A stretch of 64,000 nt of DNA from Candidatus Aenigmarchaeota archaeon LH_S7 (GTDB taxonomy: Archaea; Aenigmatarchaeota; Aenigmatarchaeia; QMZS01), in contig JAGXOL010000003.1 in the NCBI GenBank assembly GCA_023659895.1, positions 1,549 to 65,548 on the forward strand, read 5' to 3'. Shown one piece after another: positions 3-47,757 of this stretch. Each line of letters opens with the position of its first letter. The stretch's first letter is position 1. The position numbers and the translations under genes are program-made. Under the pieces are notes generated by a model, which was given only the letters and a program-made list of their open reading frames with translations, made no database searches and was not told the DNA's origin.

Positions 3-3000
3 AATGAATTAGGAACTTATAATATAACAAAAATTTATCTGAATGATACCTCTGGAAATTTGAAAGAAATTGATTTAACAGATTTCTTTGAAATTATTGA
101 ATTAAACCTGAGTTCTTCACTCTCTAATCAATCAATAGAAATAAATAAAACACAAATTTTCTCCGCAAATATATCAGGAAATGCTTCCTCAATTTCTAAA
201 GTGGAAGCAAAAATTTCAAAACCAGATAATTCAACTGAAACTATAGACTTTAATTTTGAAAATAAAACCAATAATATTTATTTTTATACTAAAAATTACC
301 AAAATATAGACTTATCCGGAAATTATTCTGTAAATACAACAGTAATATTAAGCTCAAAAATCAATAAAACAGAGCAGGCGAACTTTAATGTATCTTATGG
401 AAACATTTTAATAAAAGCTGAAAACAGAACTCTTGTAAAGAATACCACTTACGATCTCCCAATATTTATTGTTCCTAACAAGGGTGATTTATTAAATATA
501 TCTGTAAACATATCCATAGAAAATGAAACCATTATAAACTCAACAAATAAAACAAATGATATAGGGGATATTTTATGGAAAGACAATTATCAGGGTAAGG
601 GAGTATTTTTCCCAATTAATTCAACAGCGAATGGAACTACAACGATAAATATAACAGCTTATTCTCCAAATCTGAATGAAAGCAAAAGTATAAATATTAC
701 AGTAATTCGGAAGGACGATACCCCTCCAGAAATAAACAAATTTAACTATTATAATCTTACAAACTTAAATGAAATAAACAAATTTTTAATAAATACCACA
801 GAAAATGAAACAGCAATAAAAAATGTTTCTGTTGAAGTAACATGGCCAAGTAATATTACCAAGAATATCTCTGCAAATTTGAATCCCAACAATTTGTATG
901 AACTAAATTTTAATGGAACAAATGAAAATGGAACTTACGAATTTAAAATTTATTCTTGTAATCTTGCAGATAACTGTGTGGATACAATAGCAGAAGAATT
1001 TAATGTAACAAATGAATATAAAACAGTTATACTTACCTACAATCCTTACAACAAAGGAGATAAAATAAATTTCAATGTATCTGTAAAAGATGTTAGAAAT
1101 TTACCTGTAGAAGGATTTAATCTAACTTTAGTACTTAACAAGGCTGGTGATGATGTTACCCTAGTTAACAATACTATTACAAACTTTGGAAGTTACCGGA
1201 TAGAACCAGAAGATGAGCCTGGAGCTGTCAAAGAAAAGGCTGATTCTACGAATTATACAATTTATGTAAATGTAACGAAAAACCGAAATAGTGGAGAATA
1301 TAATGAGAATTTTGTTGTCTCTGAAGAAATTCCTACAGAAATTATTTACCCGGAAACAGGGTACTATCCTCCAAATACAGGAGTAGATATGAATGTCTCT
1401 GTGGTAGATATGCACAGTGAAGTTGTAGAGGGTGCTGCTGTTACTGCTTATTGTCCAAAGTGCACTAAAGATTATGCAAGATTAACTTTTGATCCAGAAA
1501 CAGGACGTTATAAAGGCAGTTCTATATTTACAGCTCCAGATGAAGACTTTGAAATTTTTATTTATTCAAGTTCTTATTTTGGTGGAAACCTTGGTTATAC
1601 TGGAAGAATGTTTACAACAACTAAAACTACTACAGAACCTTCTGAAGGAGATGGAGGTGGAGGTGGAGGAGGTGTTCCAGGAATAACTAATTGCACCTGT
1701 AAAGAGTGGAAAGATAAAGGCTGTGGTTTATCTAACTGCTCCGCAACAGAGATGTATCAAACAAGAGTATGTAATCCTTCAGGTTGTTTAGCAGAAAAAC
1801 AATGTGTTTATAATCCTATTTGCAAACCAGAAAAAGATTTTAGAATTTCAATTGATCAAGAAATACTAGAAATTGAACAAGGAGAAACAAAAAAATCTTC
1901 CATAAAACTTGAGAATACTGGAGAAAAACTTTTAAAGTTAGGTATTTCTCTAGAGAAAGAATGCTGTGATTTAAATTATACAGAAAGATTAGAACTTAGG
2001 AAAAAAGAAATAAAAACAATGCCGATTTTAATTCATACAAAACTTTCTCAAAAGGTGGGGGATTATTTAGTAAAGTTTAAAGTAAAAAGTGAGGATATAG
2101 AAAAAGAAGAAAATTTGAAAGTAGTGGTTAAAGAAAATCCACTCATTTCTTACTTAAATTCAGTTAAAAAGAAGTTGCCTGAATTAAAAGATGAAGTTAG
2201 TGGATATAGAGAAGCAGGGGTTGATGTTACTGATTTAGAAAGAAGAACACAAGAGATAGAAACTCTTATTAAAGAATCAAATTTGAGTATAAAAACAGAC
2301 AATCTAGATAATTTAGAAAAACAAGTTGATGAAATTAAAACAAAAACTGATTATATAGATAGCAAACTAATAACTTTAAAAATAAGAAAGTTCCTACTTG
2401 AAAACAAATGGAATTTGGTTTTAGCAGCGATTATTATCTTAATATCTTCCTACTTAATAACCCAAGTTACCTACCCATATTTTAGACTCAGTAGGGAAAT
2501 AAAAAATTTAAAAGAGAAAGAGCAGGAAATTACAAACTCCAGAAAAGAAACAGAGAAAAAATATTTTTTAAGGAAGATTGATGAAAAAACATTTAGAGAT
2601 ATCATGGTTAAGACTCAGCAAAAGATTTACGAACTAAGAGGTAAGCTAAAAAGAAAAAAGAAAGCTAAAGCGAATTTCTTAAAAGAAAAATTGCTTCCAA
2701 CTGCCTTATTAAAGTGGGTTATATCTTTGCCAGTTTCTTTTTTTAGATATTCGAAAGGTTTGGTAACAAAATTAAAACATAAATTTGGAAAAATAAAACT
2801 AAAAAATAAAGTTAGAGATATAAAAAGGAAAAAACTTAAAATAAAACAAATTATAAGTGATCCTAAATTTTTTAATAGAGAAGTAACACTCAAGGGTGAA
2901 GTTTCATTTATTCAGAAGACCTCTGAAGGAGACTTTATTTACAAAATAAGAGATGAAACCGGAGATATTTATATTTTCAGTAATAAGAAACTTAAGGAGG

Positions 3001-3071
3001 GTGAAAATGTGATAACAGGAGTTTTACATAAATCTATGATTGGACAAAGGTATATAGAAATTAAAGTTTAG
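3..3071 (+). CDS. Large secreted/surface protein, 5'-truncated by the window edge. It has a sequon-rich ectodomain, poly-Gly linker, Cys-rich module, TM helix and Lys-rich coiled-coil tail.
   Basis: The 60..3071 frame stays open back to nt 3 (NELGTYNITKIYLNDTSGN precedes the listed TTG), so the gene starts upstream. Other features are dozens of N-x-S/T sequons, GDGGGGGGGVPG, CTCKEWKDKGCGLSNC..CNPSGC..CVYNPIC and the hydrophobic WNLVLAAIIILISSYLI. No family recognised. Confidence 0.6.
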   Translation, partial: NELGTYNITKIYLNDTSGNLKEIDLTDFFEIIELNLSSSLSNQSIEINKTQIFSANISGNASSISKVEAKISKPDNSTETIDFNFENKTNNIYFYTKNYQNIDLSGNYSVNTTVILSSKINKTEQANFNVSYGNILIKAENRTLVKNTTYDLPIFIVPNKGDLLNISVNISIENETIINSTNKTNDIGDILWKDNYQGKGVFFPINSTANGTTTINITAYSPNLNESKSINITVIRKDDTPPEINKFNYYNLTNLNEINKFLINTTENETAIKNVSVEVTWPSNITKNISANLNPNNLYELNFNGTNENGTYEFKIYSCNLADNCVDTIAEEFNVTNEYKTVILTYNPYNKGDKINFNVSVKDVRNLPVEGFNLTLVLNKAGDDVTLVNNTITNFGSYRIEPEDEPGAVKEKADSTNYTIYVNVTKNRNSGEYNENFVVSEEIPTEIIYPETGYYPPNTGVDMNVSVVDMHSEVVEGAAVTAYCPKCTKDYARLTFDPETGRYKGSSIFTAPDEDFEIFIYSSSYFGGNLGYTGRMFTTTKTTTEPSEGDGGGGGGGVPGITNCTCKEWKDKGCGLSNCSATEMYQTRVCNPSGCLAEKQCVYNPICKPEKDFRISIDQEILEIEQGETKKSSIKLENTGEKLLKLGISLEKECCDLNYTERLELRKKEIKTMPILIHTKLSQKVGDYLVKFKVKSEDIEKEENLKVVVKENPLISYLNSVKKKLPELKDEVSGYREAGVDVTDLERRTQEIETLIKESNLSIKTDNLDNLEKQVDEIKTKTDYIDSKLITLKIRKFLLENKWNLVLAAIIILISSYLITQVTYPYFRLSREIKNLKEKEQEITNSRKETEKKYFLRKIDEKTFRDIMVKTQQKIYELRGKLKRKKKAKANFLKEKLLPTALLKWVISLPVSFFRYSKGLVTKLKHKFGKIKLKNKVRDIKRKKLKIKQIISDPKFFNREVTLKGEVSFIQKTSEGDFIYKIRDETGDIYIFSNKKLKEGENVITGVLHKSMIGQRYIEIKV

Positions 3072-3199
3072 TCTACTATTTACATAACTTCTTCTTCATC
3101 TACCCTTTTGTAGCTATGCAATTCTTCTGGTTTGAGCCATAATTTAATTTTTTAGACTATTCTATCCACTAGTGTTTTTTAGAGAGTTAATTAAAAAGT

Positions 3200-4018
3200 T
3201 TAGACTAATTTCTTGAAAACTTTTGCAACCTTTTTATGGAGATTGTACCCCAAGATATTATTTATTCTAGGTAAATCGCAACAATAATTAAATTCATTGA
3301 ATAAATATTCTCCATTTTTATAGAAAAAGTCAAAAGCGCCTATATTCAAATTTATCTCCTTTGCCACTATATTTGAGTATTTTTTTAATTTGGAGTCCAT
3401 ATTGAACTTAAAAACATTTTCGTAGATAGAAGTCTTCCAATTGGTTTTAGTTGAAGACAAAGCAAACAAAGGTTTTTTGTTTAAAATAAAAACCCTAACT
3501 AGCTTATCAAAATTTATATAGTCTTCAATTAAGAAAGGATATGTTTTGTATGATTTTTCAAGTCTCTTCTTATATAAACTTAACAATTTCGGAGAAGTTT
3601 TTCTTATCTTTTCAACATAATAACCTGCTCTCCCAAGAATAGGTTTATAAATTTTGTTTTTATTTAATAAATTTCTCAATTTTGATTTAGGTAATAAAAG
3701 TTCAGATTCTAACATAGGAACTTTATCTTTAAGTAATTCGTAACAGAGTAACTTATTTTGAAAAGTTAGAACATTATCTGGTGTATCCACAAACCTGCTA
3801 CCTCTTATTTCAAAAATCTTAGAGATATAATAACTAAGCAACCCACAATTCTCATAAGGCATCATCCTTGAATAAACTAAATCATATTTTTTTGGGTTAA
3901 AGTCTTTATTCTTGGATACATCTATAACTTCAACATTGATATCTATTTTATTGAGTTCTTTTATTAACTTAGGTTCAAAGTTAGAACTTAAAGTCTCTGT
4001 TATTAACAAAACATTCAT
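3200..4018 (-). CDS. ATP-grasp fold ligase-like protein (RimK-type)
   Basis: 272 aa. The motif order resembles ATP-grasp enzymes: KPILGRAGYYVEKI, FLIEDYINFDKLVRVFILN, NWKTSIYEN, GAFDFFYKNGEYLFNEFN. Recognised from memory only. Confidence 0.5.
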   Translation of the reverse strand: MNVLLITETLSSNFEPKLIKELNKIDINVEVIDVSKNKDFNPKKYDLVYSRMMPYENCGLLSYYISKIFEIRGSRFVDTPDNVLTFQNKLLCYELLKDKVPMLESELLLPKSKLRNLLNKNKIYKPILGRAGYYVEKIRKTSPKLLSLYKKRLEKSYKTYPFLIEDYINFDKLVRVFILNKKPLFALSSTKTNWKTSIYENVFKFNMDSKLKKYSNIVAKEINLNIGAFDFFYKNGEYLFNEFNYCCDLPRINNILGYNLHKKVAKVFKKLV

Positions 4019-4041
4019 AAAAATAAAAATAGAAAAAAATA

Positions 4042-4602
4042 TTATTCTCCTGCTTGCTTCTGTTTTTCGGTTTTATTTTCTTCGGATGTACCTCCTCCGC
4101 CTGTAGCTGTCACAAACCAAACCAATACACCTATTATAATCAATATTATTGCCAATGCTAACAAATCCGTTCCAAATGTCATGAAAGTGAATGTAGGCCA
4201 TGAATAACCACTAATAATCGCTCCTGCTATCAAGATTATTGCTGCAACGACAGATAATTTTGCCCAACTAAACTCACCTTTTCCCTTTAATAAGTCAGGA
4301 TTTATTATTGTGAACAGCATTACTATTCCTATGATTACTGAAGCAAACATTACTATTGTTCCGCTTACTGATGCTAGGAAAGCACCAAATGCTGGTCCAA
4401 AAGATACTACTATTAAGAATCCTGCTACAATTCCTATAATCCCTGATACTCCTCTTGCTACTGGCTTATCAGCACCCCCAAAAATTTCACTTTTGATTAG
4501 CAAACCATAGAATATTGCGAAGCTGAAAATCCATGGGAATACTGTATTGAAAAGCATGGAGCATATGTTTGGATCCGTTATTATATTTCCACAAGTTACC
4601 AT
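4042..4602 (-). CDS. Polytopic membrane protein, unknown function
   Basis: 186 aa with about 5 hydrophobic helices and the tail GGGGTSEENKTEKQKQAGE. No family recognised. Confidence 0.5.
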   Translation of the reverse strand: MVTCGNIITDPNICSMLFNTVFPWIFSFAIFYGLLIKSEIFGGADKPVARGVSGIIGIVAGFLIVVSFGPAFGAFLASVSGTIVMFASVIIGIVMLFTIINPDLLKGKGEFSWAKLSVVAAIILIAGAIISGYSWPTFTFMTFGTDLLALAIILIIIGVLVWFVTATGGGGTSEENKTEKQKQAGE

Positions 4603-4659: not shown

Positions 4660-6102
4660 ATGAAGGAAAAATTGAAGAAAATCTCAGATGTAGAATATTT
4701 AATTCCTAAGAGCTCCAGAGAAAAGATGAGAGTTAATGCTAAATTAATTTCCACAGATAAAATTCTGGAAGCTGCTGAGGATGAAGCAATCAAGCAATTG
4801 ACGAATGTGGCATGCTTACCAGGGGTTGTGGAGCCTGTCTACGGCATGCCTGATATTCACTGGGGTTATGGGCTTCCTATGGGGGCTGTAGGAGCTTTTG
4901 ATTCAGAAGAAGGTGTAATCTCAAGTGGTTGTACAGGTTTTGATATTAACTGCGGAATTAGGATGATTAAGACAAATTTGAGTTATGAGGAAGTAAAGCC
5001 AAAATTGAAAGAATTAATAGATGTTTTGTTTAAGCAGGTTCCTTCTGGTGTTGGAGCCAAAGGAAAATTGAAATTGGACAAGGATGAATTGGATGAAGTT
5101 TTAGTCAAGGGAGCAAAATGGGCTGAGGAGAATAATTACGCAACAAAAAAGGACTTGGAAAACATGGAAGAGAATGGGTGCATGGAAGGAGCAGATATAA
5201 ACAAGATTTCAGATACAGCTAAAAAAAGGGGGAGGCCACAATTAGGAACTCTAGGTGCAGGCAATCACTTTCTTGAAGTCCAGAAAGCAGATAATATTTT
5301 TGATGAGAAAACTGGAAAAGCTTTTGGTGTTGATGAGAAAGGTAATGTGATTATAATGTTGCATTGTGGTTCTCGTGGTCTAGGTCACCAGGTTGCATCT
5401 GATTACTTGCAGATTCATAGAAATGCTGTTAAGAAGCACAATATTTGGCTTCCTGATAATCAACTAGTTTGCGCACCTGCAAATTCCCAAGAAGGACAAG
5501 ATTATTATTCAGCTATGAAAGGTGCAGTTAATTATGCTTTTACAAACAGAACAGTGATGACCAGCTGGGTTAGAGAAGGTTTTGAGAAAGTTTTTGGAAG
5601 AAAGTGGGAAGACATGGGAATGGATTTGATTTATGATGTTTGTCACAATATTTGTAAGTTGGAGGAGCATGAAGTTGGAGGAGAAAAGAGAAATTTGTAT
5701 GTGCACAGGAAAGGTGCAACAAGGAGTTTGCCTTCTGGGCATTATCTACTACCTGATTCTTACAAAAATGTTGGACAGCCTGTTTTGATTGCTGGTTCAA
5801 TGGGAACAGCAAGTTATATATTGGTTGGTGGAGAGAAAGCAAAAGGTACTTTCTACTCAAGTGCTCACGGTGCTGGAAGAGTGATGTCAAGGAAGAAAGC
5901 AATAAGAGATTTCAGGGGGAATACAATTAGAGAAGATTTAGCTAAAAGAGGAATTATTGCAAAGTCCACAAGCCCAAAAGTTCTGGCTGAGGAAAGCCCT
6001 GATGCTTATAAGGACATTGATGAGGTTGCAAAAGCTGCAGATATTTCAGGTATATCAAAGAAAGTTGTGAGAGTTGTTCCAATAGGGGTTGTCAAGGGTT
6101 AA
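4660..6102 (+). CDS. rtcB: RNA 3'-phosphate/tRNA-splicing ligase RtcB
   Basis: 480 aa with diagnostic RtcB blocks PDIHWGYGLPMGAV, GFDINCG, GAGNHFLEVQ, HCGSRGLGHQVA, SSAHGAGR. Confidence 0.95.
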   Translation: MKEKLKKISDVEYLIPKSSREKMRVNAKLISTDKILEAAEDEAIKQLTNVACLPGVVEPVYGMPDIHWGYGLPMGAVGAFDSEEGVISSGCTGFDINCGIRMIKTNLSYEEVKPKLKELIDVLFKQVPSGVGAKGKLKLDKDELDEVLVKGAKWAEENNYATKKDLENMEENGCMEGADINKISDTAKKRGRPQLGTLGAGNHFLEVQKADNIFDEKTGKAFGVDEKGNVIIMLHCGSRGLGHQVASDYLQIHRNAVKKHNIWLPDNQLVCAPANSQEGQDYYSAMKGAVNYAFTNRTVMTSWVREGFEKVFGRKWEDMGMDLIYDVCHNICKLEEHEVGGEKRNLYVHRKGATRSLPSGHYLLPDSYKNVGQPVLIAGSMGTASYILVGGEKAKGTFYSSAHGAGRVMSRKKAIRDFRGNTIREDLAKRGIIAKSTSPKVLAEESPDAYKDIDEVAKAADISGISKKVVRVVPIGVVKG

Positions 6103-27775: not shown

Positions 27776-29233
<1,458 letters not shown>

Positions 29234-29273
29234 AAAAAATTAAAAAGAGGTTTTATCCAAAAAATTGCTTAAG

Positions 29274-29285
29274 CTCCTATCCTGT
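29274..29285 (+). promoter_or_regulatory. 3' half of the 16S processing stem
   Basis: Reverse complement of 27736-27747. Confidence 0.6.
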
Positions 29286-29426
29286 GCGCCAAAATAATTT
29301 AGAAAATTGCTATAAAATACCTTTATAAAAGTTTTACACTTTTAGTATAAACCTTCCATAGCGGTTTTAACCACTTTTCTAGTACTCCCAATCTTTTCAT
29401 ACAATTCAATACTCCACTCAACAAAC

Positions 29427-29438
29427 TTTCCAACAATT
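29427..29438. repeat. Left copy of the 12 bp direct duplication TTTCCAACAATT flanking the nested insertion
   Basis: This 12-mer is present once in the intact element (16399-16410) and twice here (29427-29438 and 30634-30645), at the exact homology breakpoints. Confidence 0.75.
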
Positions 29439-30633
29439 TGAATTTAAATTTCAGTGGACACTGCTCAAAACAGGAGAGCCTTGAATGTGAGTAAATTATA
29501 ATTAATACTAAAAATTTCTATTGGAGAACGAAGTGTAATTGATATTGCCATGATTGTTAGTACTTCCTTCATTTTTAACCTCCTAACTTAATCCTATCCT
29601 TATTATAGAGACCATGGTTCTCAATTCTGATATTACATGTTACTTTATCCCCTCGCCACTCCTCTTTAAATTTTCCAATATAATATTCCTTAGGTTTAAG
29701 AGTAATATCCGTGTTAGCATAACTCAAGTAAACCGTTCCATCTGGTTCTATATTTGTAATTTTCATAAGAAATGGAAGATTTCGTGCATTTGGTAAGGTG
29801 TATATTGGAATTAAGCCCCCTCCACCGCCGCCACCTGGTTCTCCGAGTTCTATTATATTAAGGATTACCATTGATAATTCATTGTTTATTTCAAAATTAC
29901 AGGTTTCACATTCTAAAATTCCGGAATCGTTGTCGAAATGAAGTAGGGGCGGGAAATCTATCATTAATCGACTCCCTGAAATTTCTTGATGGAGACTGAG
30001 AAGGATATAGTCGTCTTGAGGTATTGATCTAGGAAAAACTGCATTTGTGCCATCCCATTCTACAACAACATTAACTTTATCTATATCCTGAATCTCCTCC
30101 AACATCTCACTTCCTGCCTTCATCCCCCACTCATCGCTTCCTTCCACCAACAATATCGCTTTCTCCTCATTCCAGGGATTACTCAAAATCTCCAAAATTC
30201 CTTTATTCTCTCCTGGATATTCCTCAGTTACCCTTGTCGCATCTGTCATATTATATACCTCCTCCAATATCACATTCGATTTTGACGTGCCAACTACAAT
30301 TAAATTATAAGAAGATTTAAAACTTTCAATTTTTTCCGATGATATAACTTCTGGCTTATTACCTATCAGATTTTCCAAATTAGTTGCTATCTCTTCTGCA
30401 CTCTCTTTCTCTATTTGAGAGGCGTTTTCACCAATTACGATTACCGTATTTTCCTTAAAAATCTCAGGAAAATCAGATAGCTTCAGCTCTTCTGCTGGTT
30501 GCGTTGGAGCTTGATGTTCTAAAAGAAAGTAACCAGCGATAATGCAAACCACAATTACTATTCCCAGTATTAAGATTTTCTTCTTCATAATTTATTACCT
30601 CCTCTTTAATTTAAAGTTTTTCGGCCTTTTTAA
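29439..30633. mobile_element. 1195 bp insertion carrying one antisense gene. No transposase and no obvious terminal inverted repeats.
   Basis: It is defined by loss and regain of homology to the intact MITE copy, and is flanked by the 12 bp duplication. Its gene has a strong SD, unlike neighbouring genes. Confidence 0.55.
29575..30588 (-). CDS. Membrane-anchored/secreted protein of unknown function encoded inside the rRNA spacer
   Basis: 337 aa. It has an N-terminal signal/anchor (KKKILILGIVIVVCIIAGYFLL), an internal EPGGGGGGGLIP linker and a CETC pair. AGAGGAGGT lies 8 nt upstream of the ATG (30597-30605). Confidence 0.6.
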   Translation of the reverse strand: MKKKILILGIVIVVCIIAGYFLLEHQAPTQPAEELKLSDFPEIFKENTVIVIGENASQIEKESAEEIATNLENLIGNKPEVISSEKIESFKSSYNLIVVGTSKSNVILEEVYNMTDATRVTEEYPGENKGILEILSNPWNEEKAILLVEGSDEWGMKAGSEMLEEIQDIDKVNVVVEWDGTNAVFPRSIPQDDYILLSLHQEISGSRLMIDFPPLLHFDNDSGILECETCNFEINNELSMVILNIIELGEPGGGGGGGLIPIYTLPNARNLPFLMKITNIEPDGTVYLSYANTDITLKPKEYYIGKFKEEWRGDKVTCNIRIENHGLYNKDRIKLGG

Positions 30634-30645
30634 TTTCCAACAATT
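30634..30645. repeat. Right copy of the 12 bp direct duplication TTTCCAACAATT
   Basis: See 29427-29438. Confidence 0.75.
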
Positions 30646-30777
30646 CTTCCTTTTACTGCTCTGATAAAATGATTAAAACAGGGTTTGTTAAAGAGAGTTT
30701 TGAATTTTGACAAAGAATGAATTATTGATATATTTGCTAAATATCCTTAAAAACTAAAAAGTGCAAAAGTTATAACC

Positions 30778-30785
30778 TTTATATA
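30778..30785 (+). promoter_or_regulatory. Candidate TATA box for an independent 23S transcript
   Basis: TTTATATA (archaeal TTTAWATA-like) ends about 25 nt upstream of the first base of the 23S processing stem (30810). It lies directly after the right end of the mobile element. Confidence 0.4.
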
Positions 30786-30809
30786 AATTTTTTTAAATGA
30801 GATATAGTT

Positions 30810-30893
30810 ATAGATAAAGGGGGTTCCTATTTCCTAAGGAATATGAATCTGTGGAGAGTGTTTATTGCTCAATGAAAGAGTAGGTGTAAGGAA
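30810..30893 (+). promoter_or_regulatory. 5' half of the 84 nt 23S processing stem
   Basis: ATAGATAAAGGGGGTTCCTATTTCCTAAGGAATATGAAT..GGTGTAAGGAA is the near-perfect reverse complement of 33846-33929, with two mismatches seen. Confidence 0.8.
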
Positions 30894-31359
30894 TAGAAAC
30901 ATCTATTTGCTGTTAAGCTATCTAGTGGATGGCTCGGCTTGATATCTGATGAAGGACGTGGCAAGCTGCGATAAGCCCTGGCGAGGTGCATGCTGCCTAA
31001 GAACCAGGGATTTCTTAATTGTTCCTTTTTAGGAACAGGAACGCGGAGAATTGAAACATCTTAGTACCCGCAGGAAAAGAAACCAATTGGAATTCCCTTA
31101 TTAGGGGCGACCGAAAAGGGATGAGAGCAAACCGAACACTTCCTCGTAAGAGAAAGTGAATGTGGTTTTAGGGTGTTCATACTTCCTTTAGAAATTGATT
31201 GAAATTCTCTGGAAAGAGATACCAAAGAGGGTGATAGTCCCGTAAATTGATTTTGAGAGGGAGATTTGAATTGACCCAGAGTATTATCGGTTAGGTTTCC
31301 GGTGAGAACTTGGGAGTCATTAACTTCTAACTCTAAATATAATTCAAGACCGATAGCGA

Positions 31360-31392
<33 letters not shown>

Positions 31393-31961
31393 GTAAAAGG
31401 GAGTAAAAAGAACTTAAAACTAGGTAGTATAGTATCCGTTTCGAATAACGGGGTAAGGAGTATAGGTCTAGGGCTAGACTAATCTTTTGAAGAGAGAAGT
31501 CGTAGCGAAAGCGAGTGCGAAAGTGCGTTAGTCATAGGCCTATTACCCGAAGCCGGACGATCTATTCTCGGACAGGGTGAAGTGTCTCGAAAGAGACATG
31601 GAGGCCCGCACCGTTGCTAGCGTGCTTTCTGCTCGGATGATCTGGGAATAGGGGTGAAAAGCCAATCGAGTTCGGTAATAGCTGGTTCCCTCCAAAATGA
31701 GCCGTAGCTCAGCTTGCCTTTTATAGGTTTATGTGTAAAGTTACTGATTGGGTAGTAGGGGATGAAAGTCTTCGCTACTCAGTCAAACTCTAAAGCGTAA
31801 ACCATTACTGAGGTAGAGTGGGGTTTGCCGGGGAAAGCTCGGTGACCAAAAGGGGAACAACCCTAACCAGCATTAAGGTCCTTAAATAGTGGCTAAGTAC
31901 ACTGAAGGTGTTCTTTCTCTAAAACAATAGGGAAGTAGGCTTAGAAGCAGCCATCCTTTAA

Positions 31962-32003
31962 CCCTTTCCGCTTCGCGCAAAGCGTTAACGGAAAAGGAAA
32001 GAG
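31962..32003 (+). other. 42 nt GC-containing hairpin insertion in 23S, between the conserved GCAGCCATCCTTTAA and AGAAAGCGTAATAGCTCAC
   Basis: The two flanking blocks are contiguous in E. coli and typical archaeal 23S. The insert is self-complementary (CCTTTCC..GCTT CGCGCA AAGC..GGAAAAGG). Confidence 0.6.
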
Positions 32004-33343
32004 AGAAAGCGTAATAGCTCACCTACCTAGAGGAAGTGCGCCGAAGATGGACGGGGTTAAGTCACTTACCGATATGTTGGTTGCCTTTTGGCAATGTAGG
32101 AGGGTGTCTTGGCAGGGCAGAAGTTTCTCTTTAAGGAGAAGTGGACCTGTTAAGAATGAGAATCTTACTGATAGTAACAGCAAAGTGGTGTGAGAATCAC
32201 CATCGCTAGAAGTGGGCAAGGGTTCCCTACCAATTACGATGAGGTAGGGATTAGTCCGTTCCCTAAGAGGATCCCTAACAGAAGTTTTCAAAGGGAAACA
32301 GGTTAACATTCCTGTACCACTAAGTTCTAATCTAACTGGTTAGTTCGGGATAACTTAACGCAAGCTAAGCATTGAAGTCCTTGGAGTCTCGTAATGAGGA
32401 GAAGAGGATGAAGGTGTGTGGCCTTCCTAGAGAAGGTTTAGGTGACTCCTGGATACATTGTAAGCCAGTTAGTAATATTGTTTAGTGACGGTACCCAGAA
32501 CTGACAAGCTATTTCGCACTATGAAGTAAATTAATGCAAAATGCTCAGGAAACAGGTGCCCACGTTGAGTAGGCGAAGGTGTGATAGGATAATCCTGTCT
32601 AGGGAATTCGGCAAATTAGTGGTGTATCTTTGGTAGGAACCATGCCTGTTCTCCTTCGGGAAGGACAGGTCGCAGTTACAAGGAGGGCCCGACTGTTTAA
32701 TTAAAACTTAGCTGACTGCTAGTCCGTAAGGATGTGTATAGTCGGTGAAGCCTGCCCAGTGCGGGTGTGTTAAACCCTTTTTCAAGAGGGTCAAGCCCCC
32801 GTAAACGGCGGCGGTAACCCTGACCGTCTTAAGGTAGCGTAATCCCTTGCCGATTAAACGTCGGCCTGCATGAAGGTCCAACGAGGCCCTCACTGTCCCA
32901 GACAGGAACCTAGTGAACTTTCCTTCTGGTGAAGAGGCCAGAGACTTCCAGTGGGAAGAATAGTCCCTGTGGAGCTTTACTGCAGCCTGCTGTTGTGGTA
33001 ATTTTTGGGGTGTAAAGAGTAGGTAGGAGCTTCGGCGAAAGTGTGACACTACCCTCCCTAAAAATTACTGCTTACTTTTTCGGAAGGACAGCAGTTGGTA
33101 GGCAGTTTGGGTGGGGCGCCACACCCCTAATAAGGTATCAGGGGTGCCCAAAGGTTAGCTCACCGGGGTCAGAAATCCCGGGAAGAGTGTAAACGCAAAA
33201 GCTAGCCTGATTGGATTCCTCCAAGTGCAGAATCCAAGTGCGAAAGCGTGGGTTAACGAAACGCGACCTCGCTTTAATGGCGGCTCGTAACTACAGAAAA
33301 GCTACCCCAGGGGTAATGGAGCTGTGGCCCCCGAGAGTACATA

Positions 33344-33432
33344 GAAGCCTTTTAAAAAAAAAGGCTTCAGCCAAAAAATTAAATCGCCTTCTTTTAAAGG
33401 CTTTTATAATTAATTGTTTTGGTGAGTGCAAA
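33344..33432 (+). other. AT-rich 89 nt insertion in 23S domain V at the helix 89 apical loop (about E. coli 2478/2479); intron or expansion segment
   Basis: CCCCCGAGAGTACATA and TCGACGGGG are contiguous in other 23S sequences. The insert begins with the hairpin GAAGCC-TTTTAAAAAAAAA-GGCTTC and is far more AT-rich than the surrounding rRNA. Confidence 0.65.
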
Positions 33433-33845
33433 TCGACGGGGTGAGTTGCTACTTCGTTGTTGGCTTGCCTCCTCCTGGGTGTGCAGAAGCACCCAAGGGT
33501 ACAGGGGTTTACTGTTTAAAGAGGCACGTTAGCTGAGTTAAGAACGGCGTGAGCCAGTTCGGTCTATATCTGCTGGAAGTGTTCTAGTCTGACAGGAAGA
33601 GAGCTTCAGTACGAAAGGAACAAGTTCTCGTGGCCACTGGTGTACCGGTCGTGATTGCGCTGCCGGGAAGCTAAGCCATCGCGGATAAGAGCTGAAGGCA
33701 TCTAAGCTCGAAGCCGCTCTGAAAAAGAGACTAATTCAGGTGCGGATAGAAGATCCGCTTGATAGAAGAGTGGTGTACGTACCAAGCTTCGGCGAGGTAC
33801 TCAGCCTGCTCTTACTAATTCCTAGACAGCAAATAGATTCTAAAT

Positions 33846-41825: not shown

Positions 41826-41917
41826 TTTCTTTTTTTCCTTTTTTAACTCTTTTTATTTAATAGTTAAACTTTAATCAAAAATAATATTTTATGCGGGGGT
41901 AGCCAAGTCTGGTCAAA

Positions 41918-41936
41918 AGAAAGGATTCCAGAAAAA
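41918..41936 (+). other. Candidate D-loop intron (~19 nt; boundaries ambiguous within A-runs)
   Basis: 32 nt lie between the D-stem halves GCC and GGC, versus about 13 expected. UCUGG (41908-12) is complementary to CCAGA (41928-32). Confidence 0.45.
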
Positions 41937-41951
41937 GGCGCGAGACTCAAG

Positions 41952-42035
41952 GGAACTTTTAAAAAAAGTTCCATCAAAAAAAGAAGGGAACCTTTTAGAA
42001 ACAAAGCAAGATAACTACGAAAATATTGGTGGGAA
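41952..42035 (+). other. Canonical-position (37/38) tRNA intron, 84 nt
   Basis: It follows CUCAAG. UGGG just before the 3' junction can pair with loop CUCA (a 4 bp central helix) next to an AAA bulge, which is BHB-like. Confidence 0.7.
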
Positions 42036-42068
42036 ATCTCGTCCCTCAGTGGGTTCGGCGGTTCAAAT

Positions 42069-42283
42069 GGAACTTTTAGAAAAAGTTCCATCAAAACAAG
42101 CTTTTAAAAAAAGCTTGAGCAAAAAATGGAACTTTTAAAAAAAGTTCCATCAAAAAAAGAAGGGAACTTTTAGAAACCTCGAAAAACTTTGTTTTCGGAC
42201 CCCATAAACCCAAGGTTTATGAGGAAGGTTTTATCCAAAAAAGAAAAAAAGGTCTTCACCCCAAAGAAAAACGATACGGAAAT
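42069..42283 (+). other. T-loop/T-stem intron, ~215 nt (junction can slide up to 4 nt because AAAT occurs at both boundaries)
   Basis: GGCGGTTCAAAT is separated from its partner CCGCC plus the 3' acceptor CCCCCGCA by 215 nt. It starts with the same hairpin as the 37/38 intron. Confidence 0.6.
42097..42198 (+). repeat. Copy 1 of a ~102 bp hairpin-rich module (inside the T-arm intron)
   Basis: CAAGCTTTTAAAAAAAGCTTGAGCAAAAAATGGAACTTTTAAAAAAAGTTCCATCAAAAAAAGAAGGGAACTTTTAGAAACCTCGAAAAACTTTGTTTTCGG. It is more than 90% identical to 42297-42398, exactly 200 bp downstream. Confidence 0.85.
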
Positions 42284-42296
42284 CCGCCCCCCCGCA

Positions 42297-42398
42297 CAAG
42301 CTTTTAAAAAAAGCTTGAGCAAAAAAGGAATTTTTAGAAAAAGTTCCATCAAAAAAAGAAGAGAACTTTTAGAAACCTCGAAAAACTTTGTTTTTCGT
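42297..42398 (+). repeat. Copy 2 of the ~102 bp hairpin-rich module (starts at the first base after the tRNA discriminator)
   Basis: See 42097-42198. It contains the palindromes AAGCTTTTAAAAAAAGCTT, GGAATTTTTAGAAAAAGTTCC and CGAAAAACTTTGTTTTTCG. Confidence 0.85.
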
Positions 42399-42425
42399 GC
42401 CCTTATAAATATTGATTGATATGTT

Positions 42426-42764
42426 ATGGCAAAAAAGAAGGAGAACATGGTAGACAGTCTTTCAAAATTTGTCTCATTCGTAGCTTTGGTATTAGCAGCA
42501 GGAGTATTACTTTTAATAGGTTATTCATTGTACATAACCACCAATGGTTCTTCTACTCCAACACAGGATTTTTGTGGCTGGTCAACTAATGGAGAATGTG
42601 TTTATGATTCAGATTGTATTGCAGGAGGATGCTCTATCCAGCTATGTCAATCAAAAGATGAAGCTCCAGCAGTTACAACTTGTGAATGGAGAGACTGCTA
42701 TGATGCAAGCAAATATGGATTAACCTGCGGATGTGTAGATGGCAAGTGCCAGTGGTCAAAATAA
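42426..42764 (+). CDS. Small secreted eight-Cys protein
   Basis: 112 aa with an N-terminal anchor FVSFVALVLAAGVLLLIGY, then C-x5-C-x5-C-x3-C-x4-C...C-x4-C..C-x-C-x4-C spacing. Confidence 0.55.
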   Translation: MAKKKENMVDSLSKFVSFVALVLAAGVLLLIGYSLYITTNGSSTPTQDFCGWSTNGECVYDSDCIAGGCSIQLCQSKDEAPAVTTCEWRDCYDASKYGLTCGCVDGKCQWSK

Positions 42765-42793
42765 AGAAAGTTATTAAACAAACTAATATATTT

Positions 42794-43594
42794 ATGTCAA
42801 GCTCCAAAAAAACGAATAGATATTTGATTTTTACTGATTTGGATGGCACTTTACTTAACAGAAACTACTCTTCCCAGGGTGCTTTATCTGTCTTAAAAAA
42901 ATTGAAAAAGAAAAAAATCCCTGTAGTTTTCTGCACAGCTAAAACCAAATCTGAGCAGGAACTAATCAGGAAAGAACTTGGAATAAATGACCCTTTCATT
43001 GTTGAGAATGGCTCCGCAATTTACATCCCTAAAAATTATTTTGGAGAAAGAAAAGGGAAGCTGAAAGGAAAATATGAAATAATTGTTTTGGGTGTTGAAT
43101 CCAAAAAGATAAAGGATGAAATAGACAAGTTAAAGAAGAAATACAAAATAAAAAGTTACCACAATATGAGTGCTAAGGAAGTTTCAAAAAAAACTGGTTT
43201 AACACTTGAAGCTGCGAAAAAAGCAAAGAGAAGAGAATTTGGAGAAACAATAATTGAGTCAGACAAAGCTGCCTTGAGGGAACTGAAAAAGAAATTTAAT
43301 GTTGTGATTGGAGGTCGTTTCATGCAGGTTTTTGGTGAAGGTACTGACAAGGGAAAGTCAGTAAAAATTTTGTCCAATTTATATAGAGAATCTAGTGATA
43401 TAATTACTATGGGGATTGGGAACTCTTTTAATGATAAACCTATGTTAAAAGCTGTTGACAAGGCAGCAATAGTTAGAAACCCTGATGGAAATTATACTAA
43501 TCTTGGTTTGAAGAATATATACAAGGCAAAAGGAATAGGTCCAAGAGGATGGAAGGAAGTTGTTGAGAAATTTGTGTTAAATAGAAAACCATGA
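42794..43594 (+). CDS. HAD-IIB phosphatase, mannosyl-3-phosphoglycerate phosphatase (MpgP/YedP) family
   Basis: YLIFTDLDGTLLN, IPVVFCTAKTKSEQELIRKELGINDPFIVENGSAIYIP and GNSFNDKPML match the MPGP-family pattern. The start was set at the ATG at 42794. Confidence 0.8.
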   Translation: MSSSKKTNRYLIFTDLDGTLLNRNYSSQGALSVLKKLKKKKIPVVFCTAKTKSEQELIRKELGINDPFIVENGSAIYIPKNYFGERKGKLKGKYEIIVLGVESKKIKDEIDKLKKKYKIKSYHNMSAKEVSKKTGLTLEAAKKAKRREFGETIIESDKAALRELKKKFNVVIGGRFMQVFGEGTDKGKSVKILSNLYRESSDIITMGIGNSFNDKPMLKAVDKAAIVRNPDGNYTNLGLKNIYKAKGIGPRGWKEVVEKFVLNRKP

Positions 43595-46182
43595 AAAAAA
43601 CTAAAAAAAAGAAGTTTGGAAAAACAAATAAGGAAAAAGAAAGAATTTACTTAGCACCTCACAGCCATTATGATGCAATCTGGGTTTTTACTAAAGAGGA
43701 TTATTTCCACATTAACATTGATTTAATCCTGAAGAAAGCTGTGAATTTACTTGAGAAACAAAAGGATTACCGTTTTTTGATAGAACAGACTTATTTGTTA
43801 AGTGTTGTTGAAAGGAGGTATCCTGAATTATTCAAGAAAATCAAGGAAAATGTTAGGGAGGGAAAAATAGAGATTTCAGGTGGGGAATATTTGATGGCTG
43901 ATACTATGCTACCACAAGGAGAAACATTAATAAGAGAAATCATGTTTGGAAAGAAATTTGTAAAAGATACGTTTGGGGTTGATGTCCCTGTAATGTGGCA
44001 GGCAGACAGTTTCGGTTTGAATGCGCAATTACCACAAATTTACAGGAAAACTGGTTACAAATATCTTGCCTTTAGGAGGGGTTGTCCTTCTAATAAACCC
44101 TCTGAATTTTTTTGGGAAGGGTTGGATGGAACAAAAATTCTTAGTCATTGGATGCCTTTAGGGTATAGGGCAGGTTTAAACCTAAAGAAATTAGATCAAA
44201 ACTACAAAAAACTGAGAAAACTTGCCGCAACTAGCAATATTTTTATGCCTTCTGGTAGCGGGGTGACAATGCCACAGGAAGATACAACCAAAGTGGTGAG
44301 AGATTGGAACAAGAATCATAATGAAAAAATGAAAGTTTCCACACCATTGGATTTTTTCAAGAAGTTAGAGAAGGGTACTAAGAATTTAGTTACTAAAAAA
44401 GGTGAGATGTATTCTGGGAAGTATTCTGAGGTCTTCCCTGATAGTTCTTCAAGCAGGATTTGGATTAAGAAAACTTTGAGAGAATATGAAAATAAATTGT
44501 TGAGTTTTGAGAAGTTCTCTACAATAAACTTCCTAGTGGATAGTTATTATCCTGAGGAATTAAGGGATTGCTGGAGAAAAGTTTTATTTCTTGCATTCCA
44601 TGATGTAGTTCCTGGAACAGCTATTGACACTGGTTATGAGGAAGTTAGACAACACATAGGGTTCTTGGATAATCAATTAAAACTTCTCATACCTCACATA
44701 CTTAGATCCATTGCAGAGAATGATTCAAATAATGAGGAAGAAGGTAATATTATTGTTTTCAACCCTCTTTCCTGGGAGGTTTCCAATTGGGTAGAGGTTG
44801 ATTTGAGTTTTGATAAAGGAGAAATTAAGAATATTGAAGGTCTGAAATCTGGTGAGGAGGAACTGGATGTGGAACTAATGAACTTTTCAAGATATGAAGA
44901 TGAATCAATAAGAACCGCGAGAATAGGTTTTGTACCAAATGTGCCTGCTGTAGGTTACAAAGTTTACAAGATATTGCAGAGAAAACCCAAAACTAAAGAG
45001 AAAACTCTGAAAATAAAAGGTAACAAGATTGAAAATCCTTTTTTTAAAGTTGGGTTTTCCCCTAGTGATGGACTCATAAATGTTTGGAAAGACAAGGACT
45101 TTATTTGTAAAGGTAACGAATTAGTTTTGGAGGAGGAAAAAGGAGACTTGTATTATCATAAAAACGAGCTTGATAAACCTCTAAAAACAGAAGGGGGAGA
45201 AGGTGTGAAATATGGTTTTTTCAAAATCAGGGATTTTTGGATTGACAAGTCAGACTTGAGAAGAGTCATAAACATAAAAACCGATTACTATTCTTTAAGA
45301 TGGCCTTACCGTTTGTTAGACAAGATGGAACCTATTCTTTGGAAACACAATTTCATAAGTTTTGACAAGAAAATCATAGTTTACAGGGATTTGCCAAGAA
45401 TAGACTTCATAACTACTGTGAGAAATCAGCACCCTAGAATCAGATTAAGAACCAGATTTAACACATGCCTCAAGAATTCAAATTACACTTGCGAAACACA
45501 ATTTGGAAGCGTGGAAAGAAAAACAGATGAATTCTATTTGAAACCAAAAAACTGGGTGGAAAAGCCAAATGGAATCTATCCTTCTTTGAGATGGATAGAT
45601 TATAGTGATAAGAAAGGTGGAATAACTCTTCTTAATGATGGAATACCTGAGAATGAAGTCAGGGATGGGAATGTTTACCTTACTTTGCTAAGGTCTGTTT
45701 CAATGCTTTCTTCTGATGGTAGTTGTGGTCCTGCTGTTCCTGTTTTAGATGCAAGAGAATTAAAAAATTTTGAATTCAGATATTCTTTGTATCCTCATGA
45801 AGGTGATTGGAAAAAAGCTAAATCTTACCAGCAAGGACATGAATTTAATAGAAATTTGATTGCCTTACAAACTACTAAAAAGAATAAATTTAAGAGAGAA
45901 AGATCTTTCTTCAAAATAGAACCAAACAATGTAATTCTAACTTCAGTAAAAAAAGCAAACAACACTAAAAAAGGGAAGGAGATTATTTTAAGATTCTATG
46001 AAGCTTCGGGTAAAAAAACAAAAACTTCTATAAGTTTGTTCAAGAAACCTAAAAACATGGAGGTTGTCAATTTGCTTGAAGAGAAGGACAGGGAGTTTGA
46101 TAAAAAATTGAAAGTGAAAGACAAAACTATTTATTTGGATCTAAAACCTTTTGAGATAGTTACCCTTAAAATTAAATTATGA
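43591..46182 (+). CDS. Glycoside hydrolase family 38 alpha-mannosidase-like enzyme
   Basis: 863 aa. The N-terminal YLAPHSHYDAIWVF (GH38 HSHxDxxW), GGEYLMADTMLPQGETLIRE, WQADSFG and AFHDVVPGTAIDT blocks are present. Confidence 0.85.
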   Translation: MKKTKKKKFGKTNKEKERIYLAPHSHYDAIWVFTKEDYFHINIDLILKKAVNLLEKQKDYRFLIEQTYLLSVVERRYPELFKKIKENVREGKIEISGGEYLMADTMLPQGETLIREIMFGKKFVKDTFGVDVPVMWQADSFGLNAQLPQIYRKTGYKYLAFRRGCPSNKPSEFFWEGLDGTKILSHWMPLGYRAGLNLKKLDQNYKKLRKLAATSNIFMPSGSGVTMPQEDTTKVVRDWNKNHNEKMKVSTPLDFFKKLEKGTKNLVTKKGEMYSGKYSEVFPDSSSSRIWIKKTLREYENKLLSFEKFSTINFLVDSYYPEELRDCWRKVLFLAFHDVVPGTAIDTGYEEVRQHIGFLDNQLKLLIPHILRSIAENDSNNEEEGNIIVFNPLSWEVSNWVEVDLSFDKGEIKNIEGLKSGEEELDVELMNFSRYEDESIRTARIGFVPNVPAVGYKVYKILQRKPKTKEKTLKIKGNKIENPFFKVGFSPSDGLINVWKDKDFICKGNELVLEEEKGDLYYHKNELDKPLKTEGGEGVKYGFFKIRDFWIDKSDLRRVINIKTDYYSLRWPYRLLDKMEPILWKHNFISFDKKIIVYRDLPRIDFITTVRNQHPRIRLRTRFNTCLKNSNYTCETQFGSVERKTDEFYLKPKNWVEKPNGIYPSLRWIDYSDKKGGITLLNDGIPENEVRDGNVYLTLLRSVSMLSSDGSCGPAVPVLDARELKNFEFRYSLYPHEGDWKKAKSYQQGHEFNRNLIALQTTKKNKFKRERSFFKIEPNNVILTSVKKANNTKKGKEIILRFYEASGKKTKTSISLFKKPKNMEVVNLLEEKDREFDKKLKVKDKTIYLDLKPFEIVTLKIKL

Positions 46183-47085: not shown

Positions 47086-47757
47086 ATGTGCGCAAAGAAA
47101 AAAGAAGCAGAGGTTGAAGAATCAAAGGAAACCACCAAAAAACAAAAAAAAGCAGAGAATGAAAAAGCTGTAAAAACTAAAAAAACAGAAGGAGAAGGGA
47201 AGAAAAAGGAAAAGAGAAAAACTTACAAAGGTGATGTGCAGGAAAACAAGGTGATTGTTTGGGGTATAGAGGATGCGAACGAGATTTATGATTTGGGTTG
47301 CTTCGGAAAAATCAAGGATGATGATAGGAATGAATTATCCTTAGAAGAAGCTATGTTATTGGTTAATAGAAACAGGTTAAATGTTAGAAAGAATGGAAGA
47401 AAAATAAGCAAGAAAAAGTTCTATGAATATGCTTGCTCAATGGATGATGAATTCCCTTGGAAATATCGTGTTTATGAGGATTTAAGAAATAGAGGTCTTC
47501 TTGCAAAGACAGGCTTTAAATTTGGTACTCACTTCAGAGTTTATGGTCGCGGAGTTAGATTAACCAAAGGACATAAAAATAGAAAAGAGCACACAAAATG
47601 GATTGTCCATGCAGTTCCTGAAACTTTCACTTGTTCATTACCTGAATTAGCTAGGGCAGTAAGGTTGGCCCACAACATCAGGGCAAAAATGCTTTGGGCT
47701 GTGGTTGACAAGGAAGGGGATGTGACTTATTATGAGATTGTTAGAAAAACACCTTGA
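47086..47757 (+). CDS. endA: tRNA-splicing endonuclease EndA with a Lys-rich N-terminal extension
   Basis: The C-terminal catalytic domain is YEDLRNRGLLAKTGFKFGTHFRVYGRG..HTKWIVHAV..AVRLAHNIRAKMLWAVVD (Tyr/His/Lys triad context). The first ~45 aa are KKKEAEVEESKETTKKQKKAENEKAVKTKKTEGEGKKKEKRK. Confidence 0.85.
   Translation: MCAKKKEAEVEESKETTKKQKKAENEKAVKTKKTEGEGKKKEKRKTYKGDVQENKVIVWGIEDANEIYDLGCFGKIKDDDRNELSLEEAMLLVNRNRLNVRKNGRKISKKKFYEYACSMDDEFPWKYRVYEDLRNRGLLAKTGFKFGTHFRVYGRGVRLTKGHKNRKEHTKWIVHAVPETFTCSLPELARAVRLAHNIRAKMLWAVVDKEGDVTYYEIVRKTP

Follow-up and report, generated by a model that had tools for sequence, protein, structure and literature searches.

Repeated hairpin modules in the predicted introns and trailer of an interrupted archaeal tRNA-Leu(CAA) gene, and their possible role in splicing

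The 64-kb stretch of archaeal DNA analysed here (the window) has a G+C content of ~33% and carries a tRNA-Leu(CAA) gene predicted from its sequence to be interrupted by three protein-spliced bulge-helix-bulge (BHB) introns. Copies of a short hairpin module lie in the two larger introns and in the 3' trailer of the gene (Table 1). The host is a DPANN-type archaeon, probably one of the Aenigmarchaeota; a relative with 54% identity in its CBS-domain protein carries the source name Candidatus Aenigmarchaeota. ARAGORN and Rfam found no tRNA over the whole 64 kb, and ARAGORN missed the tRNA-Leu gene in the raw window also when run with its intron options. The inserts were taken out by hand, and solely after removal of all three was the remaining 86-nt sequence called tRNA-Leu(caa).

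Table 1. Positions of the features discussed in the text (window coordinates unless a contig is named).
Feature	Position	Strand	Basis or remark
16S gene	27776-29235		window
23S gene	30901-33838		window
23S rRNA insertion, 89 nt, probable BHB mini-intron	33343-33431	+	central helix GTAC/GTGC 4/4
tRNA-Leu(CAA) gene, 404 nt	41893-42296	+	ARAGORN call on spliced sequence
Four exons, 86 nt in total	41893-41914, 41934-41951, 42036-42067, 42283-42296	+	
D-loop intron, 19 nt, without hairpin module	41915-41933	+	central helix CTGG/CCAG 4/4
Anticodon-loop intron, canonical 37/38, 84 nt	41952-42035	+	central helix CTCA/TGGG 4/4
T-loop intron, 59/60, 215 nt	42068-42282	+	best register TTCA/CGGA 3/4; relaxed
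Module A copy 1, GGAACTTTTAAAAAAAGTTCC + ATCAAAA	41952-41979	+	hairpin forms in minimum free energy fold
Module A copy 2, GGAACTTTTAGAAAAAGTTCCATCAAAA	42069-42096	+	28-mer identical in other archaea and bacteria
102-nt block copy 1, inside T intron	42097-42198	+	module B, module A unit, hairpin C
102-nt block copy 2, 3' trailer	42297-42398	+	starts at first base after discriminator A42296
tRNA splicing endonuclease EndA, 223 aa, single alpha-type unit	47086-47757	+	Pfam
tRNA-Ala(UGC) gene with 30-nt intron, contig L003	4403-4504 (-)		
tRNA-Ala(UGC) gene with 30-nt intron, contig L030	about 2410-2511 (-)		

Removal of the inserts restores a canonical tRNA-Leu, as is required of BHB introns. The acceptor stem (GCGGGGG...CCCCCGC) forms 7/7 pairs and the T stem 5/5 within a T arm of GGCGG-TTCAAAT-CCGCC; the anticodon arm reads CGAGA-CTCAAG...A-TCTCG and the variable arm, read by eye, is long. 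The minimum free energy (MFE) fold of the 404-nt precursor retains the acceptor, D, anticodon and T stems together with every module hairpin. Splice sites were assigned by a register in which bases -6 to -3 ahead of the 5' cut pair with their counterparts at -6 to -3 ahead of the 3' cut; each of the two strands then carries one 3-nt bulge, and both cuts fall two bases into a bulge. The D-loop intron fits this register with bulges TC|A and AA|A and a weak outer helix (1/5 pairs). In both large introns the first four loop bases pair with the last intron bases to give a 4-bp central helix with two 3-nt bulges (CTCA at 41946-41949 with TGGG at 42030-42033 in the anticodon intron), and the outer helix is supplied by the anticodon stem or the T stem, each with 5/5 pairs. 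Sites 37/38 and 59/60 are geometrically equal, since in both the insert separates bases 6 and 7 of a 7-nt loop closed by a 5-bp stem. Several T-loop splice points are possible within AAAT, and the BHB register decided between them. At 215 nt the T intron is long for a tRNA intron.

Module A consists of a 21-nt hairpin followed by an A-rich tail, A[T/G]CAAAA. Its core, GGAACTTTTANAAAAAGTTCC, occurs on the + strand without mismatch at 41952, 42069 and 42128 and with one mismatch at 42327. These four matches are all that the 64 kb contains at up to 3 mismatches, where 0.05 were expected and none of 100 shuffles equalled the observed count; none follows a protein gene of the window. The copy at 42069-42096 folds into a 9-bp stem with a triloop (-9.4 kcal/mol, z = -3.9). 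The palindrome AAGCTTTTAAAAAAAGCTTGAGCAAAA occurs exactly twice, at 42098 and 42298, as does the CGAAAAACTTTGTTTTCG hairpin, at 42178-42197 and 42377-42396. These elements belong to two 102-nt blocks, identical at 97/103 positions and starting exactly 200 nt apart, whose differences include 3 substitutions and 2 one-base indels. The intron block is composed of module B (42097-42124, with CAAGC/GCTTG arms), a module A unit (42128-42177) and hairpin C (42180-42197); the trailer block repeats the order with module B at 42297-42324, a module A unit at 42327-42376 whose stem contains a U.G wobble, and hairpin C' (42379-42397). The 51-nt head of the anticodon intron (41952-42002) is a further module A unit, matching 42128-42177 at 50/51 and 42327-42376 at 47/51 positions.

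The original prediction had placed the hairpin at the same four positions, degenerate at 42327, and had described a ~102 bp block present twice, 200 bp apart and more than 90% identical; every string and coordinate was reproduced. It had also recognised both large introns and their near-identical starts. To these are added the 19-nt D-loop intron and a longer extent of the shared anticodon-intron head, and its T intron of 42069-42283, which gives the same spliced product, is moved by the BHB register, with the result that the T-intron hairpin begins at intron base 2 and not at base 1. Homologous sequence thus stands in introns at 37/38 and 59/60, as in transposed or duplicated tRNA introns. 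The shared segments are 50-102 nt long, 94-98% identical and reach past the hairpin, which bears out the preference for intron duplication or transposition over independent gain. Since the copied units include non-module sequence, local segmental duplication or gene conversion is the indicated route.

Ten introns were tabulated for local hairpins and for long-range pairing of the inner helix, h'. In six of them, from three organisms, the first or second intron base, immediately past the 3-nt bulge, opens a local hairpin: the anticodon, T and 23S introns of the window, the anticodon and T introns of tRNA-Leu in the closest relative (L049) and the tRNA-Ala intron of a Micrarchaeota metagenome-assembled genome (MAG; L003). 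Five of these hairpin-first introns have a perfect hairpin and no contiguous long-range h' beyond one pair; the sixth, the L049 anticodon intron, has 2 long-range h' pairs and an imperfect hairpin. Three module-free introns (L054 T, L054 D and L051 D) show 3-5 contiguous long-range h' pairs. Measured against the strict motif of outer helix, BHB and inner helix (hBHBh'), the anticodon and T introns have an outer helix of 5/5 pairs and lack the long-range h', which is poor in the anticodon intron, and the local hairpin abuts the 5' bulge in its place. The simplest reading of the junction position would be that the hairpin itself serves as the inner helix.

The arms vary between copies and pairing is kept (GGAAC/GTTCC, CAAGC/GCTTG, GAAGCC/GGCTTC), a set partly picked as palindromic and so illustrative rather than a test. 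Diverged copies pair through G.U, which is possible on the + strand only (GGAAU/GUUCC in the trailer; CAGG/CUUG and GGAAUC/GGUUCC in L049), and the hairpin loop is A-rich on the sense strand in all copies. Arm covariation and sense-strand G.U pairing together suggest that selection has acted on the RNA.

A hairpin of the same design stands in the 23S rRNA gene. In the Rfam large subunit (LSU) alignment, 91 nt occupy a conserved hairpin loop where the model has 2. One base after the predicted cut begins GAAGCC-TTTTAAAAAAAAA-GGCTTC (33344-33368; -13.4 kcal/mol), followed by AGCCAAAAAA. This hairpin was found by a generic palindrome scan with a TTT...AAA centre, as the sole further match in the window. 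Hairpin-first like the tRNA introns, the insert is probably an rRNA mini-intron. It resembles archaeal rRNA BHB mini-introns in its size, its conserved loop, its predicted 4/4 central helix and its predicted 3-nt bulges, and differs from them in opening with the hairpin and in being without a homing-endonuclease open reading frame (ORF).

The gene for the tRNA splicing endonuclease EndA lies 5 kb downstream of tRNA-Leu. The protein carries the Pfam domains tRNA_int_endo_N (2e-15) and tRNA_int_endo (1e-25) and a Lys-rich N-terminal extension, and is 91% identical to the EndA of L049. Its best match among solved structures is 1A79 (1.5e-28), which we take to be the M. jannaschii alpha4 enzyme. 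In DPANN archaea, alpha4-type EndAs with an extra loop have been associated with tRNA genes that are interrupted more often (PMC5829648).

In three relatives (L049, L051 and L054) the tRNA-Leu(CAA) gene has the same two neighbours as in the window, a 58-aa gene on one side and a Cys-rich gene on the other, and the spliced sequences of all four were called Leu(caa). L049, whose CBS protein is 75% identical, has no D intron, an anticodon intron of 69 nt and a T intron of 115 nt at 59/60. The former opens with a CAGGC...CTTG hairpin near module B of the window, the latter with GGAATC...GGTTCC-ATCCAAAAC; the L049 trailer contains neither the 102-nt block nor the module. L054/L055 (CBS 55%) possesses the D intron and a 54-nt T intron of unrelated sequence, and no anticodon intron; L051 (CBS 54%) possesses the D intron only, and no trailer module was seen in either. 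As these syntenic relatives differ in intron content, introns at the three sites have been gained and lost within the clade. On this distribution the two large introns are older than the split of the window from L049, and the trailer copy is specific to the window. The same tRNA-Leu gene with 1, 2, 2 or 3 introns over the locus and its three syntenic relatives offers a series for the study of intron gain.

The trailer copy differs from the intron copy at 6 positions, two of which are T4 to T5 changes, giving T5 runs at 42331-42335 and 42391-42395 where the intron copy has T4. Within the precursor all 8 T-runs of four or more are exactly T4, with A-runs of up to 7, and such runs in the 23S insert are four in number and again all T4, against just 58% of such T-runs being exactly 4 window-wide. 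The absence of T5 is not significant against a simple shuffle of the intron composition (P = 0.90 for none), and the pattern is informative solely as all runs stopping at exactly 4. It is suggestive of an archaeal oligo-T terminator formed by the T5 runs of the trailer and avoided inside the transcript. The trailer copy would have no splicing role, and its two T4 to T5 changes would make an oligo-T stop for the archaeal polymerase.

These observations are best explained, in our estimate with a probability of roughly 0.6, by the hairpin acting as h' of a relaxed BHB motif, together with local duplication. An AU-rich perfect hairpin at intron base 1 or 2 would replace the usual inner helix, so that the alpha-type splicing endonuclease would meet the 5' bulge enclosed between two helices. 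Inside the locus the module would have been multiplied as segments of 50-102 nt were duplicated locally or spread by gene conversion. One segment would have been copied between the T intron and the head of the anticodon intron, in either direction, and one lies now in the 3' trailer. The repeat copies are plain at the locus; the manner of their copying is what the explanation supplies.

Several points weigh against this explanation. That the introns are spliced, where precisely they are cut and that the hairpin acts as h' are all predictions, and the contrast in h' is one of 5-6 introns with 3. The T-intron central helix pairs at just 3/4, and the MFE fold favours a slightly different T-intron register with 2-nt bulges. 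With the local hairpin as h', strand B is lengthened between h' and the central helix, by 2 nt in tRNA-Ala and here by tens to >100 nt, so that the structure is not the canonical hBHBh' motif; alpha4-like EndA is classically strict in its substrates. The T4 ceiling is not universal, the D intron of L054 holding a T6. Finally, local duplication leaves unaccounted for the 28/28 identity of 42069-42096 with sequences of Micrarchaeota and bacteria, and the orthologous intron of L049, the closest relative, has diverged despite these distant matches.

The exact 28-mer GGAACTTTTAGAAAAAGTTCCATCAAAA was sought by one scan of representative genomes and one of metagenome contigs. The module pattern occurs in 2 of 185,579 representative genomes, and the background G+C of its carriers spans 0.31-0.57. 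In two archaeal contigs, the Micrarchaeota MAG L003 and L030, the 28-mer with an A on either side constitutes the entire canonical intron of tRNA-Ala(UGC). The two introns agree at 30/30 positions, against exon differences at 8/72 positions and flanking sequences without relation, so that conservation is higher in the intron than in the tRNA itself. In the BHB register, the CAAA of the module tail is paired with the UUUG in the anticodon loop of tRNA-Ala. A bacterial contig of 1.1 Mb (Ga0153956_1000001, G+C ~0.55), identified as such by NAD-dependent ligase LigA, DnaN and RHS, holds at least 6 copies (loci L015, L024, L035, L039 and L047), several of them extended to ...ATCAAAAGAACA and flanked by GCATGC; the L035 copy has an inverted loop. 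Further carriers are L002, L014, L023 (twice), L045 and L046. Copies away from tRNAs are mostly intergenic, often 0-55 nt past a co-oriented stop codon. Their left edge is sharp, flanks diverging immediately before GGAAC. The flanks themselves follow no common pattern: L024 and L035 have GCATGC at either side, L002 and L023 have inverted flanks, and the remaining copies have nothing of the kind.

The original prediction had proposed a small hairpin element that targets tRNA junctions. As a general rule this finds no support, as the 28-mer outside this genome is mostly not at tRNAs, and the junction position is more simply a matter of splicing geometry, with the hairpin at base 1-2 in six introns. 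The contrary possibility, a generic repeat scattered without relation to tRNAs, describes the module globally, in bacterial intergenic DNA and at most of the viral loci described below, and does not describe the 64 kb, where all copies lie in or beside BHB introns.

A different account of the cross-domain identity is that the 28-nt module is a promiscuous small palindromic mobile element, comparable to repetitive extragenic palindromic (REP) sequences, miniature inverted-repeat transposable elements (MITEs) or Rickettsia palindromic elements (RPEs), which crosses genomes and domains. Insertions into archaeal RNA genes would survive where a BHB makes them removable (37/38, 59/60, the rRNA loop) or where they are harmless (the trailer), and the window would reflect insertions followed by local amplification. 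The exact 28-mer in such different G+C backgrounds is in keeping with this, as are the shared tRNA-Ala introns amid unlike exons and flanks and the multiple sharp-edged bacterial copies, one with a flipped loop. In tRNA-Ala the module alone completes the BHB (CAAA/UUUG), which fits the survival filter, and L049 holds decayed versions only, so that plain vertical inheritance does not account for the distant identity. The copies showed neither a transposase nor target-site duplications or empty sites, however, and the 50-102-nt units of the window, with their non-module sequence, speak for local duplication and not for repeated insertion of a 28-mer. There is no further copy in the 64 kb; many dispersed copies are seen in Ga0153956_1000001 and not in the window. 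Exact copies numbered 0 in 2.9 million viral contigs, none occurred in plasmid or phage collections, and with 2 of 185,579 representative genomes any vector is invisible. Mobility is the only reading that addresses the cross-domain identity, and it comes without mechanism, end definition or empty site; we regard it as possible but doubtful. It and the inner-helix explanation with local duplication are not mutually exclusive.

A combined form, in which the module is a self-contained, horizontally moving mini-element of DPANN archaea and bacteria, with AT-armed look-alikes in giant viruses that may or may not be its kin, and becomes an intron at once upon landing in an RNA gene, we consider unlikely. 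If true, the mini-element would supply the inner helix and, for UUUG loops, a strand of the central helix to a tolerant splicing endonuclease. It would then be the first physical carrier identified by which tRNA and rRNA genes acquire protein-spliced introns, seen here during its amplification.

Several known element types were compared with the module. In L023, a divergent TnpB-like ORF (2799-4103, +) gives weak matches to OrfB_IS605, Cas12f1-like TNB and IS607_TnpB, all below cut-off; the 28-mer lies at 3702, ~50 codons after the zinc-ribbon domain, and another copy, in inverted orientation, follows 1.7 kb further downstream at 5460. An IS200/IS605 or TnpB end, or a palindrome-associated transposable element (PATE), was rejected, since this ORF (E ~3e-4) is the single TnpB-like neighbour, other copies follow the unrelated apt, fpg, OmpA-family and kinase genes, and no omega-RNA family matched. 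A sequencing adapter or vector was likewise rejected, there being no plasmid or phage match and the copies lying inside long contigs at sensible sites such as exact intron positions. In L045 (about 1-129, -) the module overlaps the fpg (MutM) gene and supplies its stop codon, and a 40-nt tandem repeat containing the module 3' half follows to the contig end. The AT-rich contig L041 has two tandem 39-nt module units (2465-2542) directly past a stop codon, with AGGATAAAAT on both sides, and 250 nt downstream of them an intron-less tRNA cluster of Asn, Lys, Lys, Glu and Val (2792-4020).

A looser pattern with free arm ends matched >120 viral loci, many of them in giant-virus MAGs where the copies form tandem arrays with a period of 29-48 nt; these matches rest on a pattern imposed in the search and are weaker evidence of kinship to the archaeal module. 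The first copy of an array is typically co-oriented and -4 to +10 nt from a stop codon. The array unit is nAAAC-TTTTA[GA]AAAAA-GTTTn + nnCAAAA, and the arm often contains the TAA stop itself (L058, L061, L067, L083, L091, L093, L101, L109, L123, L124, L126 and L134, from giant-virus and other IMG/VR contigs). No tRNA lies near 57 of 60 loci of these AT-armed relatives; two copies stand 17 nt after a viral tRNA-Gln. The viral arrays may be a conserved gene-end signal. Byrne et al. are said to have described in 2009 a 'hairpin rule' for Mimivirus transcript 3' ends. The viral relatives near stops and the window trailer copy at a gene 3' end recall those hairpins, which lack a shared sequence, whereas a fixed core AAC-TTTT-A[GA]A-AAAA-GTT with a CAAAA tail, often in tandem, is found here.

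From such gene-end positions it could be argued that the modules are gene-end hairpins and the introns former trailers, left when a split or tandem gene was rejoined in cis or when a 3' part and its trailer were duplicated in tandem. The module does stand 0-1 nt after each exon end that precedes a large insert and after the true 3' end (41952, 42069, 42297 and, in 23S, 33344); elsewhere it is co-oriented at bacterial and viral gene ends and twice follows the viral tRNA-Gln, and the 200-nt spacing equals the block plus 85 nt plus the 3' exon. Yet the second 200-nt unit ends with the block, with no second 85-nt segment or 3' exon, L049 has both introns and no trailer module, which makes the trailer copy derived, and no module stands behind any protein gene of the window. 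As the h' explanation covers the position at intron starts without extra history, we find this origin improbable.

It is more improbable still that the hairpin array is itself a functional RNA, such as a protein platform or a stable circular intron RNA, and conserved for that role. The tRNA-Ala intron is more conserved than its exons, the arms covary and the hairpins are strung along A-rich linkers, all as such a role might require. Against it, the L049 copies are decayed, the same sequence in bacterial intergenic DNA would need another role, and Rfam, at gathering and E-value thresholds, holds no family for the module, introns or trailer; an intron-encoded C/D box RNA was rejected as no C or D box motifs were seen by eye. 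The searchable literature gave no match for the module sequence.

An origin of the 200-nt periodicity in faulty assembly, through collapse or expansion of a repeat, is very unlikely: short-read assemblies do break here, the Logan contig L001 (SRR14170872) beginning at 42368 inside the longest exact repeat (32 nt), but this is the behaviour of a k-mer assembler at a true repeat, and the two blocks differ at 6 positions, this independent contig is 100% identical to 42368-44516 and joins the trailer-specific variant to the downstream gene, the exons are intact and in order, and L049 has the same two large-intron sites.

The locus belongs to a known kind, the multi-intron tRNA genes of DPANN archaea with BHB introns. 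Archaeal BHB introns are cut by EndA and occur, several to a gene, at 37/38 and non-canonical sites in Thermoproteales and DPANN (PMC4033280, PMC4090602, PMC5829648), and heavily disrupted tRNA genes have already been reported from DPANN (PMC5829648). The window agrees in having inserts in the D, anticodon and T loops with two 3-nt bulges and a 4-bp helix, whose removal restores a normal tRNA, in carrying an EndA gene and in its DPANN-type host. It differs in that h' is predicted to be a self-contained hairpin followed by a long insertion rather than a helix closing the whole intron. For Thermoproteales, intron transposition or duplication among tRNA genes has been described (Mol Biol Evol 27:2233, via PMC4033280). 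As far as that work is represented in PMC4033280, the likeness lies in related introns at different positions (37/38, 59/60) and in different tRNA species (Leu, Ala), which implies that introns were copied and not independently gained. On the same footing, the window differs in its DPANN lineage, in sharing within one gene, its trailer and a 23S insert, the tRNA-intron survey covering 64 kb of this genome with one detectable tRNA, and in a shared unit that is a defined 28-nt hairpin module found also outside introns and outside Archaea.

REP/MITE-type families are normally species-specific, and Ogata et al. reportedly found in 2000 that Rickettsia palindromic elements insert into protein and RNA genes. 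The module resembles REP sequences, bacterial interspersed mosaic elements (BIMEs), MITEs and the Rickettsia elements as a short, perfect palindrome that is multi-copy and intergenic in one bacterial contig, has sharp edges, and often lies just after genes and sometimes inside ORFs and RNA genes. Unlike them, the 28-mer is identical across domains and confined in the window to one locus, and no transposase, terminal repeats or target duplication were found with it. What is new is the hairpin-first architecture, its occurrence in two tRNA introns, a trailer and a 23S insert of one genome, and the identity of the module with sequences of another archaeal phylum and of bacteria. If the hairpin does serve as inner helix, the definition of splicing-enzyme substrates would be widened; if the cross-phylum and bacterial identity reflects movement, a specific mobile sequence would be linked to intron gain. 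The tRNA-Leu gene escapes standard tRNA finders entirely, which implies that DPANN tRNA sets are under-called.

Other structural classes did not fit the repeats. A CRISPR repeat was rejected as the tandem arrays (L041, L045 and viral) have identical linkers and the copies in the window, spaced 28, 31 and 35 nt apart, are too close together for spacers to fit. An integron attC site was rejected on its anatomy, just the AAC/GTT triplets fitting, and an intrinsic terminator because the sense-strand tail is A-rich (ATCAAAA) and the opposite-strand T-run precedes the hairpin. ORFs of 76-92 aa across the repeat region, on both strands, were rejected as genes, being repeat translations that cut across exons.

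Beyond tRNA-Leu, the 64 kb without a tRNA detectable by ARAGORN or Rfam is either a tRNA-poor region or one that hides heavily disrupted tRNA genes. The 16S and 23S genes lie 1.67 kb apart (29236-30900), and this spacer has no detectable tRNA and contains an opposite-strand ORF of 337 aa (29575-30588), for which reasons the rRNA genes perhaps do not form a simple operon. In the distant relatives L052, L176 and L178 synteny is lost, the CBS gene no longer adjoining tRNA-Leu and the 58-aa gene, and these contigs gave no information on the tRNA. Upstream there is instead a gene for a tyrosine integrase, directly or within ~2 kb (L052 2107-2940, L176 1-471, L178 1029-1949), a hint that integrating elements favour this neighbourhood.

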